From a virus (Duplodnaviria > Heunggongvirae > Uroviricota > Caudoviricetes): a stretch of 4,813 nt of DNA. The position numbers and the translations under genes are program-made. The DNA is taken from the IMG/VR virus record IMGVR_UViG_2563366830_000013, one strand, 5' to 3'. The notes beneath the pieces are model-generated. The model searched no databases and had not been told where the DNA came from. It saw nothing but the letters and a program-made list of their open reading frames with translations. Below are positions 1 to 4,813 of the stretch, one piece after another (positions within the stretch are counted from its first letter, which is position 1; the number at the start of each line of letters is the position of its first letter).

Positions 1-244
1 CACGGCGGTGCGGAGTCCGGAGAGTAACGGCATAGCAGAGAGCTTCGTGAAAACGATAAAGCGTGACTACATCAGTGTCATGCCCAAACCAGACGGGTTA
101 ACGGCAGCAAAGAACCTTGCAGAGGCGTTCGAGCATTATAACGAATGGCATCCGCATAGTGCACTGGGTTATCGCTCGCCACGGGAATATCTACGGCAGC
201 AAGCCAGTAATGGGTTAAGTGATAACAGGTGTCTGGAAATATAG
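1..244 (+). CDS. insD: IS2 transposase OrfB (InsD), C-terminal fragment (5'-partial; reading frame enters from upstream)
   Basis: Open frame from window start to TAA at 242-244; translation …[62 protein letters not shown]… is typical of the C-terminus of IS3-family integrase-core (rve) transposases and matches IS2 InsD from memory. The M at 8 in the ORF track is an internal GTG, not the true start. Confidence 0.8.
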
Positions 245-486
245 GGGCAAATCCAGCCGATAAGAATTGATGCTGCTGGTTTGTAAAAGAGAAGGCCGCA
301 AAGAAAGCTGAGCATCGACAGGAGCACCCGGCGACGGATGGGGTACTCTACTGCAGAGGTAACAAAAATTACCACCCCAGCCAAAGCCCCTAAAGCAACC
401 TCCGGAGGGACACCTGCAATAACTGCAGCAAGAGAACCAAAACTAAGCAACTGATTTAATTGCTCATTTGTTACTTGAGCAGACAT
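169..486 (-). pseudogene. Small two-TM membrane protein (holin-like) gene interrupted by IS2; native first 77 codons (486->256) fused to 28 codons read from the IS2 inverted repeat
   Basis: ATG at 486-484 is preceded by a strong SD (minus-strand AAACAGGAGAAAGT-ATG). Native part MSAQVTNEQLNQLLSFGSLAAVIAGVPPEVALGALAGVVIFVTSAVEYPIRRRVLLSMLSFLCGLLFYKPAASILIG has two hydrophobic segments separated by a basic loop. After codon 77 the translation (WICPYI…) is read from IS2 terminal sequence. It lies downstream of the tailspike on the same strand, where lysis genes sit in T7-like gene order. The holin assignment is inference only. Confidence 0.5.
215..255. repeat. IS2 terminal inverted repeat (right end, ~41 bp)
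   Basis: Last ~41 bp of the IS2-like segment; contains the CCAGACA core I recall as shared by both IS2 ends. The target-site duplication cannot be checked because the other end is outside the window. Confidence 0.55.
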
Positions 487-767
487 ACTTTCTCCTGTTT
501 ACTATCTATAAGCCAGTCAATTATTGATGACTAAACCCGCATAGCAAACCATATATGAATCATTATTGTTCCATATCATATATCTCAATAAAAGTACTAA
601 TGATTTTACAGAACGAGCCAGCAGAGTGGGGGCAGTTGTACAGGAACCATAGACTTAATTTTGTATTTAATAATGCTATGGTGTAATAAACCTGAACATG
701 TATTTAAAATACGTACTGATTCATGATAGAATTCAAAGATAACTTTTCACCAACTCCGTTTTTGATA

Positions 768-794
768 CCCGCAATATTTTGCGGGCTTTTTTTT
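768..794 (+). terminator. Rho-independent terminator-like hairpin (7-bp GC-rich stem CCCGCAA/TTGCGGG, 4-nt loop, then C + T8) immediately 3' of the tailspike stop codon
   Basis: Perfect inverted repeat 768-774/779-785 followed by TTTTTTTT at 787-794. The T-tract is on the plus strand, so it is canonical for plus-strand transcripts; on the minus strand (tailspike mRNA) the hairpin follows an A-tract and has no U-tract, so it may act bidirectionally or mainly stop convergent transcription. Confidence 0.6.
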
Positions 795-3700
795 AACGTT
801 CTTCCAGAGACTGAACCCGCTCTTTTATCTTATCCATTTCTCTGCGCTGCCATGCTGCCTCGATATAGAATAAGAGATCAGGTCTGACCCCCCATCTAGA
901 TCCTGCTGGCGTTATTTCAACGCGCTCAATGATGTCTTCTATTACCATCACTGGATTATCATCATCATCAACAATGATGCTCCCGTCATTATCAGTCAGC
1001 GGCATTTCCCTTTGGCCAGTAATGACGTCATCATATACTGCGGGATAATCGTCATAGCAAAGAAAGGCATAGCGGCATGTTGTGCTTTCTTCTTCCATGA
1101 GTCCGTGAGAAATAAGAACATCACGAAGTTGCTGCGCGATTACACCATGATGTATCCTCGCCCCTTCTTCCCCCTTTATAGCGACAGCGTTCAGCCATTT
1201 ATAAGCGATATACCTGACGTCACCCCAGGCATCCAGCAATGCTTCGTCAGGAGAGACCGGCTCTGTCTTTAATGTTCCGTCACTGGTAACCACAGGATTG
1301 GAGCCAAGATAAACTGTCGAGAACCTGTTTCCCGGACCACCAAGAGCATTTACATTATCAAGATAAGGTTTAACATCTCCGTTCTCAAAAAGATGTTCGA
1401 GTGCGTTATATACCGCGCGACGTGGAGTACTGCTTCCGGAACCATGCAACGTTATCATTGCACCATCTGCTGAAGACGTTGTTTCACCGCCGCTAACGAT
1501 TAATCTCTGAGCGGTAACATCATCAGACGGTACTTTCTTCGCAATAATGGCGTAATTACCCTCAAGTTTGACTTCCGCGCGAACTTGTCCTGATGTACCT
1601 GCATGGACAGTCAGTGACTGGACGGCAACATCATCTGTGAAATCAACGGGTACAGGAACCGTCCTCACGCCTGACGTCGACATAAAAGTAGGAAGCGTTC
1701 TGTTAGGAGTGGCTCCGTAGACAAAATCCCTTGAAACAAATTCTTCCTGTTTAATTTTCACCCTGAAACAATACAAATCAGCCGGGTGACCATCGTGAAC
1801 ATAAGGATATTTTCTGTTGTTATCCCCTATGCTCCATGGGTTTAGAAAGTCTTCCCCACCGAAAATGTAGTACAGCCAGTTGTCTTTGATACAAACTGAA
1901 CCAACACCAACCGCAGAGTTAACTATTCCGCCCTGATAAATCTGATCAGTAACATTAACCCACTCTACATTATCCAGACTCCACTCATTGACGTTAACTC
2001 TGGTCATAAATGTTCTTGGATAATTTCCTGCATAACGGTTATCAGGTTCTCCTCCTTCCCACTCACCAAATGCGCGCTCACTGCCAAAAATAATCAGCTC
2101 ATCGCCAACTTTGGCAAAAGGAAGGTTTGAGTGATGAACATTATTTGGGAAGCGAAGAGAATTCCATGATGTACCTAAATCAGAGCTTCTGTGCAATGAA
2201 CTACCGGGTTGAGTACTTAATGTCCCCCTGGTCGTCAGATACAGAATGCCATCATAATATTTTACACATGGCTCAGATGCATTCGCCTCATATTCTACAG
2301 GTATGCGTCTGCGAACAAAGCTACCAGGAGAACCGAAAGCATCAGAGAAATAGAGTATCCCAAGCTCGCGTGGACCAATATCACCATTATGGTAGCCAAC
2401 AGCAAAACTGTTATCGCTAATCGTCGCAAAACTGTGAATCTCAGTAACAGGAGTGCTTCCGTCAACAAAAGAAGGAATAGTTCCAAGACTGGTTTTTCTC
2501 CATGGTGACGAGTGAAATGATGTGCCAAAACTCCAGTATCTACCCTCGTTATTCTGATCCACATCCTGGGTATTTTGCGTCGTAACTGTAAAGGTATTTT
2601 TATCAATAACAGTAGTCACCGTCATATTCCCGGTAACACCTGTAACACCAGAGTTTGAGAAGTTGACAAAATCACCAGCAAATAATCCGTGATCAGTAAT
2701 GCGAATATAAGCGACTTGCTGATTTGCTGCTTTCGTTATACCACCATAAACGCGAAGGCTGCGACTCATTGGGCGATCCCACAACTCTGCAACCTGCAGT
2801 TTATTTCCTCTCACGGTCCGCGTCTCAATTACAGCAAAAAGGCGATTTCTGACAACCCCCATACTCATGCAGTGATAGTTAACTGTGGGATAGTTTTCAT
2901 GTAAATCTGTAAGCCATTCCGGCGTTGTCCAGGTCTTCCCGTCATCTCCTGAGCGAACCCATGCAACATGGAGGTTATTTACACCATGGCGGTCTCCAGC
3001 CATAAAAGGCGCATAGATGACATTGTCATATACAAACGTTTTATCCTGCGTCCAGGCGTTGTACCACGGTGTATCTGTAATTTTAAATAACTCTCCCTGG
3101 ATAAAATCTTCAGAAGCATAAAAAAGAGGCTGGCCCGGTATTCTCTCAAATAAAAAACGAGCATTTTTAAATCGACTGACATCCGGAAGAGTTGATACTT
3201 TAAAAGTAAGCCCTAATCCGTCAATTTTATAACCTGGAGATGAGGCTTCAAGGCACGCGCTTATTGCAGTGGAATCGTCATTTATACCATCACCAACAGC
3301 TCCAAAATCTTTGGGGCTAATAGCATCACGCATTTTATCCTGGAACGTTCGGTACACAGCCCCAGAACCATACTGAATAAACCAACCAAAACCACCAACA
3401 ACTCCGGCGATTGCAGCATCGACATAATTACGCATTGAGCGATTATTTACAGCGTCCTGCTCAAATGATGGATCTGCAAGGTTAGAAATTTTGTTTTGCT
3501 TTGCATCGTAATATTTTGCAAGCAAAGATGGTTTCATCAATGCACGTCTGAACCACCCAAAACATTGCTGGATCAGCATCGTCAGGTAGTCAAAGGCATC
3601 TTCATGCACTTCGGGGAAAAATTTTCCCTGATTGCGAAGGTCTGTGTCCTGCACTACATCAAGCACACGATCTATCGTAATTCGCCATCCAGTAGCAAGC

Positions 3701-3912
3701 GGAGACGGAAGAACCACAGAACCGCCACTATAAGTGCCCGCCCCAGTTACCGTATAACCGGTATCCAGGACCAATTCTGTTACGTTCCCGTTCAGGTCAG
3801 ACACCTGAACAACCAGGTCTGATTTTCTGAAAATTCGAAAAGTATACGGAAACGATGTCGTAACGCCGTTACCGGTGTATTCGTTGTGGTCAACTTCGGT
3901 TGAGACCGTCAT
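793..3912 (-). CDS. Phage tailspike/tail-fibre protein, 1039 aa: T7 gp17-like N-terminal adaptor domain, central endosialidase-like glycanase region with two Asp-boxes, C-terminal intramolecular chaperone (peptidase S74-like) domain
   Basis: Long uninterrupted ORF with SD (minus-strand CTGGAGATTTAAC-ATG). The N-terminal ~150 aa follow the T7 gp17 N-terminal pattern (YTGNGVTTSFPYTF…DYTV…DLRNQG…). Residues 202-215 DFGAVGDGINDDST. Two Asp-box motifs: SGDDGKTW (aa 321-328, nt 2929-2952) and SSDLGTSW (aa 576-583, nt 2164-2187). C-terminal ~160 aa carry a Ser877…Lys882 spacing (TSDGTLK) and …DAWGDVRYI…IHHGVIAQQLRDV…, consistent with a self-cleaving C-terminal chaperone domain. The overall pattern resembles K1F-type endo-N-acetylneuraminidase as I remember it; substrate specificity is not proven. 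Confidence 0.9.
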   Translation of the reverse strand: MTVSTEVDHNEYTGNGVTTSFPYTFRIFRKSDLVVQVSDLNGNVTELVLDTGYTVTGAGTYSGGSVVLPSPLATGWRITIDRVLDVVQDTDLRNQGKFFPEVHEDAFDYLTMLIQQCFGWFRRALMKPSLLAKYYDAKQNKISNLADPSFEQDAVNNRSMRNYVDAAIAGVVGGFGWFIQYGSGAVYRTFQDKMRDAISPKDFGAVGDGINDDSTAISACLEASSPGYKIDGLGLTFKVSTLPDVSRFKNARFLFERIPGQPLFYASEDFIQGELFKITDTPWYNAWTQDKTFVYDNVIYAPFMAGDRHGVNNLHVAWVRSGDDGKTWTTPEWLTDLHENYPTVNYHCMSMGVVRNRLFAVIETRTVRGNKLQVAELWDRPMSRSLRVYGGITKAANQQVAYIRITDHGLFAGDFVNFSNSGVTGVTGNMTVTTVIDKNTFTVTTQNTQDVDQNNEGRYWSFGTSFHSSPWRKTSLGTIPSFVDGSTPVTEIHSFATISDNSFAVGYHNGDIGPRELGILYFSDAFGSPGSFVRRRIPVEYEANASEPCVKYYDGILYLTTRGTLSTQPGSSLHRSSDLGTSWNSLRFPNNVHHSNLPFAKVGDELIIFGSERAFGEWEGGEPDNRYAGNYPRTFMTRVNVNEWSLDNVEWVNVTDQIYQGGIVNSAVGVGSVCIKDNWLYYIFGGEDFLNPWSIGDNNRKYPYVHDGHPADLYCFRVKIKQEEFVSRDFVYGATPNRTLPTFMSTSGVRTVPVPVDFTDDVAVQSLTVHAGTSGQVRAEVKLEGNYAIIAKKVPSDDVTAQRLIVSGGETTSSADGAMITLHGSGSSTPRRAVYNALEHLFENGDVKPYLDNVNALGGPGNRFSTVYLGSNPVVTSDGTLKTEPVSPDEALLDAWGDVRYIAYKWLNAVAIKGEEGARIHHGVIAQQLRDVLISHGLMEEESTTCRYAFLCYDDYPAVYDDVITGQREMPLTDNDGSIIVDDDDNPVMVIEDIIERVEITPAGSRWGVRPDLLFYIEAAWQRREMDKIKERVQSLEER

Positions 3913-4015
3913 GTTAAATCTCCAGATAGTCGCAGCACCCGTTGCGCCGCATATCTGGTTATTCTATTACCTGAAAAACCATATATGGATAAAAAGACTA
4001 TAAATACCAATAGAT

Positions 4016-4032
4016 ATTACCTTTCGGGTAAT
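4016..4032. promoter_or_regulatory. Palindromic candidate operator ATTACC-N5-GGTAAT in the divergent intergenic region
   Basis: Perfect 6-bp inverted repeat with 5-bp spacer. A near-identical palindrome ATTTACC-TTTGC-GGTAAAT recurs at 4395-4413, and isolated ATTACC half-sites lie at 3966-3971 and 4374-4379. The binding protein is unknown. Confidence 0.35.
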
Positions 4033-4068
4033 TTGCAAAACGTGCTGGATAGCAAACAAATTATTTGT

Positions 4069-4088
4069 TACTGTATAAACATACAGTT
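4069..4088. promoter_or_regulatory. LexA (SOS) box, near-consensus
   Basis: TACTGTATAAACATACAGTT matches CTGT-N8-ACAG and 17/20 positions of the E. coli consensus TACTGTATATATATACAGTA. It ends 19 nt upstream of the ATG at 4108 and would overlap any promoter for that ORF; it is also about 157 bp upstream of the divergently oriented tailspike start. Confidence 0.75.
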
Positions 4089-4107
4089 ATTGCATGGAGA
4101 AGATAAG

Positions 4108-4365
4108 ATGCAGCAGTATCACTATCCACTGGAAGACGGATTTACCGAAAGGATTCACACGCCGGGAGGCGTCAGGTCACTGGTGGAGGGATCGCACTTG
4201 ATGAAATTACTCCGGGATCTCGATAAGGATGGATTTAATGTCGATGGCCCACTTGCCGAACTGACTGCACTGATTAACTACGTCACCAGCTCACAGATGT
4301 CTATGCAGGATCTGCAAACACATCTCGACTATTGTGCCGAACAATTACGAAAACAAACCAGATAA
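4108..4365 (+). CDS. Hypothetical small protein (85 aa), putatively SOS/LexA-regulated; function unknown (candidate antirepressor or regulatory factor)
   Basis: ATG at 4108 preceded by GGAGA (4096-4100) at 7-nt spacing; stop TAA at 4363-4365. The ORF track's upstream in-frame ATG at 3985 has no SD and would make the LexA box coding, so 4108 is preferred. No transmembrane segment; no family recognised from the sequence MQQYHYPLEDGFTERIHTPGGVRSLVEGSHLMKLLRDLDKDGFNVDGPLAELTALINYVTSSQMSMQDLQTHLDYCAEQLRKQTR. Confidence 0.65.
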   Translation: MQQYHYPLEDGFTERIHTPGGVRSLVEGSHLMKLLRDLDKDGFNVDGPLAELTALINYVTSSQMSMQDLQTHLDYCAEQLRKQTR

Positions 4366-4504
4366 GGTTTGCAATTACCAAATGGAGTGCTTATATTTAC
4401 CTTTGCGGTAAATTTACATCGCACTCCTCTTGTGCCATAGTAATCGGGCACTGGCAAAATCCAGTGCCGGGATTGGTCTCCCGGATTACTACAGAGGCAC
4501 ATAT

Positions 4505-4524
4505 GCCGCATAAGCGGTTTTTTT
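4505..4524 (+). terminator. Putative Rho-independent terminator (short GC stem GCCGC/GCGG with 4-nt loop, followed by T7)
   Basis: GCCGCATAAGCGG followed by TTTTTTT at 4518-4524 on the plus strand, about 140 nt downstream of the 4108-4365 ORF and after a cluster of stable hairpins. The stem is short (4-5 bp), so it may be weak or conditional. Confidence 0.5.
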
Positions 4525-4678
4525 ATGTGTAAAGCGCACCTATTCTATGGTGGGCTGTGTGGGGGCACCGAAAGGTGCGCCGGGTTCCTTTGTAGCCGGT
4601 AAGACCAACTCTGCACAGTTCACCACCATCTGATTGGTCTCAGCGGTGGTGATTAACCTAACTACAAAGGTGATCGCT

Positions 4679-4813
4679 ATGAATACCAAACCTTCCATCT
4701 TTTCCTTTGAGTCATCCTGCCAGATCCGTATGTTCATGATTGACGGAGAACCTTGGTTTGTCACCAAAGATGTGTGCAATGCTTTGAATATTGATGTTAC
4801 ACAAGCGAGAAAA
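4679..4813 (+). CDS. Bro-N domain protein (phage antirepressor-like), N-terminal 45 codons; 3'-partial, continues beyond the window
   Basis: ATG at 4679 with SD AAAGG (4666-4670) 8 nt upstream; translation MNTKPSIFSFESSCQIRMFMIDGEPWFVTKDVCNALNIDVTQARK shows the Bro-N signature (F.F……IR…IDGEPWFV.KDVC.AL). Not in the ORF track because no stop is reached within the window. Confidence 0.8.
   Translation, partial: MNTKPSIFSFESSCQIRMFMIDGEPWFVTKDVCNALNIDVTQARK

Follow-up and report, generated by a model that had tools for sequence, protein, structure and literature searches.

The subject of this analysis is a 4,813-nucleotide (nt) stretch of DNA (hereafter, the window) from the IMG/VR virus record IMGVR_UViG_2563366830_000013, assigned to the Caudoviricetes. 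An open reading frame (ORF) located on its minus strand at positions 793–3912 very probably encodes the tailspike of a temperate podovirus resembling epsilon15, that is, the protein that binds and destroys the receptor, and this tailspike appears to be a K1 endosialidase carried on a recombinant adaptor. The ORF is intact, begins with an ATG codon and comprises 1039 codons followed by a stop. Its product is a 100% match to WP_000218905.1 of Escherichia coli MS 196-1, and the RefSeq name for the ORF is endosialidase domain protein. An initial annotation of the same DNA had described the product as a mosaic tailspike, which was confirmed by Pfam and PDB matches and by the breakpoints found in the DNA.

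Domain structure and catalytic residues of the tailspike

All four Pfam endosialidase domains were found in the tailspike protein. The End_N_terminal domain (residues 205–271, E = 5.8e-32) is followed by the catalytic beta-propeller, End_beta_propel (PF12217; residues 272–721, E = 1.7e-232, 771 bits at a cut-off of 24), encoded at positions 1750–3099 of the minus strand. Inserted in the propeller is the beta-barrel, End_beta_barrel (PF12195; residues 383–465, E = 3.2e-46, 155.7 bits at a cut-off of 35), encoded at positions 2518–2766 of the same strand. The stalk, End_tail_spike (PF12219; residues 722–876, E = 8.4e-78, 260 bits), is encoded at positions 1285–1749 (minus strand) and ends at the predicted cleavage site Thr876|Ser877. 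The remainder of the protein, residues 877–1039 (163 amino acids; positions 796–1284, minus strand), is the C-terminal intramolecular chaperone domain, which begins with a Peptidase_S74 match (PF13884; residues 877–937, E = 1.7e-10, 41.4 bits at a cut-off of 22). The same organisation was recovered from structures: those of the phage K1F endosialidase endoNF (1v0e and 3gvl) match residues 205–876 with E = 0, and residues 757–1038 are matched by 3gw6, a construct of the K1F C-terminal chaperone, with E = 3.2e-93.

The endosialidase-like catalytic region with two Asp-boxes proposed in the initial annotation was recovered not only by Pfam and by the K1F structures, but also at the level of individual residues. 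A motif search (S-x-D-x-G-x-x-W) revealed exactly two Asp-boxes in the tailspike protein, SGDDGKTW at residues 321–328 (window positions 2929–2952, minus strand) and SSDLGTSW at residues 576–583 (2164–2187, minus strand). In an alignment with full-length K1F gp17, residues His350, Glu581, Arg596 and Arg647 of K1F, which we take from the K1F literature to be the active-site set, correspond to His309, Glu547, Arg562 and Arg613 of the tailspike, and all four are conserved. In the comparison with 3gvj, the structure of the R647A crystal mutant, a mismatch falls exactly at the arginine equivalent to R647. The central region is therefore not a non-sialidase glycanase fold with different catalytic residues, since both its fold and its residues match those of K1F. 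In the stalk, Arg803 and Ser814 are the conserved equivalents of K1F Arg837 and Ser848, which, together with Gln853, are presumably residues that bind polysialic acid; Gln853 itself is replaced by Met819. Judged by its sequence, the tailspike is a genuine endosialidase and more than a look-alike.

The Ser877/Lys882 dyad, which had been put forward as the basis for self-cleavage of the C-terminal domain, was correctly placed. Ser877 (codon at positions 1282–1284) and Lys882 (codon at positions 1267–1269) align in register with K1F Ser911 and Lys916, and the arrangement, with the serine at the cleavage site and the lysine five residues after it, is that of a Ser–Lys pair. The boundary between the mature protein and the chaperone in the K1F record (mat_peptide) lies at the same point as Thr876|Ser877, and the K1F crystal construct terminates exactly opposite Thr876. 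The C-terminal part released by such a cleavage would measure 163 amino acids.

The adaptor

The first 199 residues of the tailspike (positions 3316–3912, minus strand) constitute the virion anchor, or adaptor. As far as can be judged from sequence and a predicted model, it has the podovirus fibre-anchor fold and is, by sequence, of the epsilon15 gp20 type. Its amino acid identity to epsilon15 gp20 (residues 1–161) is about 71–73% over residues 1–165, and its N-terminal ~165 residues are 68–73% identical to the tailspikes of epsilon15, phiV10 and SPN1S. Residues 1–209 of the tailspike are also matched by sequence, with E = 3e-35, by Dpo31 of Carin-1 (8ck1), whose homologous domain D1 is a beta-sandwich by which the spike is fixed to the tail, followed by a three-helix coiled coil (PMC13317679).

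The initial annotation had termed the adaptor T7 gp17-like. A BLASTP comparison with T7 gp17 yielded one stretch of 22 amino acids (E = 0.01), at corresponding positions toward the end of the domain, and a comparison with the N-terminus of K1F gp17 gave nothing significant. A Pfam search with the isolated adaptor (residues 1–204) up to E = 10 returned a sub-threshold match to the T7 tail-fibre N-terminal family PF03906 and no other. Since the pairwise BLASTP results were unconvincing, a comparison at the level of fold was required. In the AlphaFold2 model of residues 1–204, the beta-sandwich (residues ~8–85) was predicted confidently, with a predicted local distance difference test score of about 84–90, while the helical part, which probably requires the trimer, was modelled poorly; these helical segments probably form a coiled coil.

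A Foldseek search of the PDB with this model retrieved the anchors of podovirus fibres and spikes. Carin-1 was the top match (E = 4.6e-12, 47% identity), and further matches were to PhiM1, LME-1, Kp7, Kp9 and P-SCSP1u. The N-terminus of T7 gp17 was found in three structures (7ey9, 7boz and 8dsp) with E-values of 1e-5 to 1e-4, a Foldseek probability of 1.0 and 13–16% identity. Per chain, E-values were 7.2e-5 for 7ey9_a and 9.8e-5 for 7boz_a, with target-normalised TM-scores of 0.48–0.57 for a model in which only the beta-sandwich is confident. The likeness to T7 gp17 thus holds for fold and role, but not for the sequence family, PF03906 being below its threshold; since the adaptor belongs to the epsilon15 gp20 type, "T7 gp17-like" is imprecise as a family label. 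A P22-type head-binding adaptor, suggested by the similarity to prophage CUS-3 described below, was rejected, because that similarity begins only at residue 193.

A 277-amino-acid protein of Kluyvera cryocrescens (P0010) is 79% identical to the adaptor and bears the endosialidase N-terminal extension PF12218. Adaptors of the epsilon15 type may thus be attached to endosialidase-like bodies outside E. coli as well.

Mosaic structure of the gene at the DNA level

Comparison of nucleotide sequences located the joints of the mosaic. Nucleotides 1–596 of the gene (codons 1–199) share 97.3% identity with the 5′-terminal part of the tailspike gene in phage EC.W1-9. The product of the latter, 624 amino acids long and annotated as "eliminase", is wholly divergent past residue ~200 and has a different enzyme part. 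Nucleotides 699–3091 (codons 233–1030) are, in a blastn comparison, 99.29% identical over 2393 nt to siaK1 of CUS-3; this segment, located at positions 822–3214 of the minus strand, encodes the greater part of the catalytic region and almost the entire chaperone domain. Between the two lie 102 nt (597–698 of the gene) with no blastn match to EC.W1-9 or CUS-3. This junction (positions 3215–3315, minus strand), delimited by blastn, alignment and translation, encodes residues 200–233 (PKDFGAVGDGINDDSTAISACLEASSPGYKIDG), the first half of the endosialidase N-terminal extension. It holds a "DFGA-GDG--DD" motif common to all aligned tailspikes, and the join falls within this motif. Apart from the siaK1 segment, the 44.8-kb prophage locus showed no similarity to the 8 kb surrounding siaK1 in CUS-3.

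The exchange of modules is therefore demonstrated at the nucleotide level, and the recent exchange of a receptor-binding module, one of two scenarios offered in the initial annotation, is borne out by the identities to EC.W1-9 and CUS-3. The guanine-cytosine (GC) content, which the annotation had proposed to compare between domains, showed no signal of exchange: it is 0.459 in the adaptor, 0.436 in the junction, 0.445 in the CUS-3-like segment and 0.470 in the chaperone domain, and such a flat profile leaves composition silent on this matter. On the basis of the 99.3% nucleotide identity of the enzyme body to that of CUS-3, we infer a recent homologous exchange of this body, in which two unrelated lineages of temperate podoviruses with K1 hosts in common took part. 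Because the junction segment has a separate origin, the pattern suggests an older fusion of an epsilon15-type adaptor with an endosialidase, later overwritten by CUS-3-like sequence, and the junction hints that the older partner may have been a third endosialidase lineage.

Endosialidase tailspikes are textbook examples of modularity in receptor-binding proteins: by a swap of N-terminal adaptors, the same enzyme body is fitted to different phage chassis. The same endosialidase body was also found in T7-like phages (K1F and its relatives), in phages of ~73 kb and in phages of 116–155 kb. The locus described here, combining an epsilon15-type adaptor with a body 99.3% identical to that of CUS-3 at the nucleotide level, is a clean and datable instance of such an exchange. 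It alters no concept, but is useful for host-range prediction and for the choice of depolymerases against K1 E. coli causing neonatal meningitis or pathogenic for birds.

Comparison with related phages

Over its full length, the tailspike is 99.5% identical in amino acid sequence and 99.7% in nucleotide sequence to ORF7 of the temperate phage vB_EcoP_ZX5 (hereafter ZX5; MW722083), named "tail fiber domain-containing protein". Both neighbours of the tailspike gene, the gp19-like and the holin-like gene, are shared with ZX5, as is the genus Uetakevirus. However, the lysis cassette and tail genes are intact in ZX5, which is viable, whereas the copy in the window belongs to a prophage that bears IS3-family insertion sequences (IS) and lacks about 11 kb of tail genes. 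ZX5 was isolated on, and plates on, a K1 strain (O87:H52:K1), integrates at the 3′ end of guaA and is induced by mitomycin C (PMC9782041). For ORF7, "three conserved domains" were reported, namely, an N-terminus like that of T7 tail fibres, a middle part resembling endosialidases and an endosialidase intramolecular chaperone (Li et al. 2022, PMC9782041). Because the same domains are stated there for a protein 99.5% identical to ours, and the endosialidase is annotated in RefSeq, the three-part architecture is already known; the DNA-level breakpoints and the relationship to CUS-3 are a modest addition.

CUS-3 (CP000711), a P22-like prophage (Lederbergvirus) of E. coli K1 RS218, has the same catalytic region and chaperone domain in its SiaK1 protein, for which the GenBank record flags endosialidase activity as directly assayed. 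Amino acid identity is 95.3% over residues 193–1037 of the tailspike and reaches 98–100% from about residue 241. SiaK1, with a total length of 981 amino acids, differs in its P22 gp9-type head-binding N-terminus, which has no similarity to residues 1–192 of the tailspike. The genetic context differs as well: siaK1 is followed by neuO and int, the tailspike gene in the window by the lysis cassette. The endoNF protein (gp17) of K1F has the same order of domains after the adaptor and about 63% amino acid identity over residues 196–1039 of the tailspike; in contrast, its adaptor of ~240 amino acids is a genuine T7-family one, and K1F is a lytic T7-like phage.

In epsilon15 (gp20) and phiV10, the tailspike gene occupies the same position, divergent from gp19 and separated from it by a conserved intergenic region, but the receptor-destroying parts of these proteins act on O-antigens and show no sequence relationship to the endosialidase body. 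The anchor composed of a beta-sandwich and helix is shared with Dpo31 of the marine podovirus Carin-1 (8ck1, 28lx) and with T7 gp17 (7boz, 7ey9); the former resembles the adaptor by sequence and the latter by fold (E of about 1e-4).

Control region upstream of the tailspike gene

The region between the tailspike gene and its divergent neighbour (positions 3913–4107) contains a 15-nt element, a palindrome and a LexA box. The neighbour itself, located on the plus strand at positions 4108–4365 (85 amino acids), is 84% identical to epsilon15 gp19, and the whole intergenic region aligns with that between gp19 and gp20 of epsilon15, with all three sites conserved. The divergent layout is therefore normal for the genus and not a peculiarity of this locus. 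The LexA-box core CTGTATAAACATACAG at positions 4071–4086, directly upstream of the gp19-like gene, is a perfect CTGT-N8-ACAG and the single match to this pattern in the window, compared with 0.07 expected by chance. Accordingly, the initial claim that the tailspike gene is divergent from an SOS-controlled region is supported at the sequence level. The palindrome ATTACC-TTTCG-GGTAAT (positions 4016–4032) corresponds to the "repressor" site of the epsilon15 GenBank record, which lists repressor and integration host factor sites between gp19 and gp20, as well as a rho-independent terminator after the structural operon and before gp19.

The 15-nt element ATYCATATATGGTTT, with the palindromic core CCATATATGG, is located on the minus strand at positions 3976–3990, 64 nt upstream of the tailspike start. 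A second copy (ATTCATATATGGTTT on the minus strand) lies at positions 546–560, 60 nt upstream of the start of the holin-like gene. Exactly two copies are present in the window and likewise in the whole genome of ZX5, where 0.17 would be expected. In epsilon15, copies with one and two mismatches occupy the two equivalent positions, so that both in this prophage and in epsilon15 the element precedes the tailspike gene and the lysis cassette by about 60–66 nt. Two matches with up to three mismatches in the 10.5-kb epsilon15 locus are not rare, being found in 46 of 200 shuffled sequences, and the support therefore comes from the equivalence of positions. This arrangement favours dedicated, co-regulated control sites in front of the tailspike and lysis units.

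The prophage and its host strain

The window matches part of the chromosome of the human colon isolate E. coli MS 196-1 with 100% identity, and at least 80% of it is present in 71 of 5426 complete E. coli genomes. The surrounding 45 kb are a prophage that adjoins yfgI and contains terminase, portal, capsid, lysis and replication genes. The prophage is epsilon15-like (Uetakevirus), and its location at yfgI is consistent with the attachment site at the 3′ end of guaA given in the ZX5 paper.

Downstream of the tailspike gene, the 5′ fragment (77 codons; positions 256–486, minus strand) of a holin-like membrane-protein gene homologous to epsilon15 gp23 was found. It is a RefSeq pseudogene ("putative holin, missing C-terminus") and matches the holin family phrog_198 with E = 9.4e-25; in ZX5, the gene is intact and 405 nt long. 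As had been noted initially, the gene is disrupted by an IS: positions 1–255 (plus strand) are the 3′ end of an IS3-family element, with the C-terminus of its transposase at positions 8–244 according to RefSeq. In related genomes free of the IS, the match to the window starts only at position 256, and most of the 71 genomes carrying the locus are without it.

The view of a decaying prophage, the other scenario of the initial annotation, is likewise upheld. Two IS3 insertions are present, about 11 kb of the tail and ejection genes of ZX5 (28.3–39.4 kb in its genome) have no match in the MS 196-1 prophage, and a Rha-family gene is a pseudogene. Decay of the prophage and exchange of the module are both true and not mutually exclusive. 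The prophage in MS 196-1 is defective, and production of virions is not expected; since this is so, the intact tailspike gene in this strain is most likely a recent relic. The second IS3 copy breaks up the region of the tail genes and is located at positions 31887–33100 of locus L001 (segment 25407–33500, MS 196-1 prophage), with truncated genes on both sides, and a segment matching positions 1–1350 of ZX5 is inverted relative to its neighbours and partly duplicated.

The MS 196-1 chromosome also contains a K1-type capsule locus with neuB, neuC, an alpha-2,8-polysialyltransferase gene and kps export genes. This locus, found at positions 34229–49948 of L008 (834–850 kb of the record), includes kpsMT-like transporter genes and a neuD-like acetyltransferase gene, and an IS1 lies between the transporter genes and the neu genes.

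Proposed role of the tailspike and alternative explanations

In the mechanism that we propose, three chains would trimerise under the guidance of the C-terminal chaperone domain, which would then remove itself by a Ser877/Lys882-dependent cut after Thr876. The N-terminal beta-sandwich would hold the mature trimer on an epsilon15-type tail, while the six-bladed beta-propeller, its beta-barrel insert and the stalk would bind and cut alpha-2,8-polysialic acid, letting the virion tunnel through the K1 capsule. The gene is a recombinant, in which an adaptor of the epsilon15 type, found also on phages with other depolymerases, is joined to a CUS-3-like endosialidase body. It is located in the usual place for a Uetakevirus, before the lysis cassette and divergent from the gp19-like gene that bears the LexA box, and in relatives such as ZX5 it belongs to a viable phage plating on a K1 host. 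Several points weigh against this picture. Cleavage of polysialic acid and self-cleavage are activities that we infer from the very close homology to characterised proteins. In the stalk, Met819 (window positions 1456–1458) stands in place of K1F Gln853, and the match of the adaptor to PF03906 scored 16 bits, compared with the 25.2 required, and covered residues 135–161 only. A sigma-70 consensus scan of the tailspike strand over positions 3913–4107 found no site with the required features. Finally, the annotation of MS 196-1 shows frameshifts in the neuA-like and neuE-like genes, which may be assembly errors or may leave the lysogen without a capsule.

The replacement of the stalk glutamine by Met819, together with the separate origin of the junction segment in the N-terminal extension, could be taken to mean that the plain K1 polymer is not the substrate, which might instead be K92, for example, or polysialic acid only in its O-acetylated or de-O-acetylated form, so that the assignment to K1 would be mistaken or partial. 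This is very unlikely, given the 99.3% nucleotide identity to CUS-3 siaK1, whose activity is recorded as directly assayed, the conservation of all four mapped active-site residues, the isolation of ZX5 on a K1 strain and the presence of a polysialyltransferase gene in the lysogen. One could also hypothesise that the host retains the tailspike in a dead prophage, where a free endosialidase made upon SOS induction would remodel or shed the capsule of the host itself or attack K1 competitors. The ORF has indeed stayed intact, although the holin-like and tail genes of the same prophage are destroyed, and it adjoins a putatively LexA-controlled module and may have a control element of its own. Nevertheless, we regard this as very improbable: the 99.5% identity to the protein of a viable phage indicates that the decay is recent and that selection would not yet be visible, the IS is missing from most of the 71 genomes with the locus, and the capsule genes of MS 196-1 appear damaged.

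A different question is how a K1 tailspike of an epsilon15-like phage would be transcribed. The initial annotation had assigned to the gene a divergent promoter of its own; the divergent layout is real and standard in epsilon15, but the promoter is putative, no site on this strand at positions 3913–4107 having satisfied the sigma-70 scan. The best candidate found by eye is weak, with TCCATA (positions 3989–3984) as the −35 box, a 17-nt spacer and TAGAAT (positions 3966–3961) as the −10 box, giving 8 matches of 12. Both facts would agree with the absence of a dedicated promoter and with late transcripts of the structural operon reading through the antirepressor/moron region, whose orientation is opposite, by antitermination; in P22, gene 9 is reached by read-through across immI. 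We consider this possible, though rather doubtful. In epsilon15, a rho-independent terminator is annotated where the structural operon ends, ahead of gp19; in ZX5, some 2.2 kb of genes on the opposite strand intervene between the structural genes and that of the tailspike; and the presence of the conserved 15-nt element in front of the tailspike gene and again in front of the lysis cassette suggests dedicated co-regulated sites. A broader speculation, which we hold to be very improbable, is that the tailspike gene and the lysis cassette of Uetakevirus form two transcription units governed through this shared element with its CCATATATGG core and a putative regulator, and that defective copies of the prophage could express the endosialidase alone, for example, after SOS induction, acting on the K1 capsule of the host or its competitors.

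Other features of the window

A hairpin at positions 768–785, directly past the stop codon, was considered as a terminator of the tailspike gene and rejected: because TATCAAAAAC comes next on the tailspike strand, it is an intrinsic terminator for the opposite strand only. On the plus strand, the hairpin is followed by T8 and constitutes a strong intrinsic terminator, preceded by a promoter-like site at positions 703–732 (TTTAAA, an 18-nt spacer and TAGAAT, with an upstream TG); the two are oriented toward the tailspike gene's 3′ end. The segment 703–785 could yield a very short transcript, or could be the leftover of an opposite-strand moron like the conversion genes of epsilon15.

In PHROG, the gp19-like protein weakly matches the C-terminal end of antirepressors (phrog_1760, E = 4.5e-7), and its gene may encode a small SOS-controlled antirepressor of the Tum kind. 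Between this gene and a BRO-N antirepressor gene starting at position 4679, Rfam searches detected on the plus strand isrK (RF01394; positions 4448–4524, 74.7 bits at a cut-off of 50) and the C4 antisense RNA (RF01695; positions 4543–4630, 78.6 bits at a cut-off of 45), together with a sub-threshold match to the c4 a1/b1 target at positions 4435–4487. Judging by these matches, the RNAs at positions 4435–4630 look like an antisense control of the antirepressor of the P1/P7 immI type.

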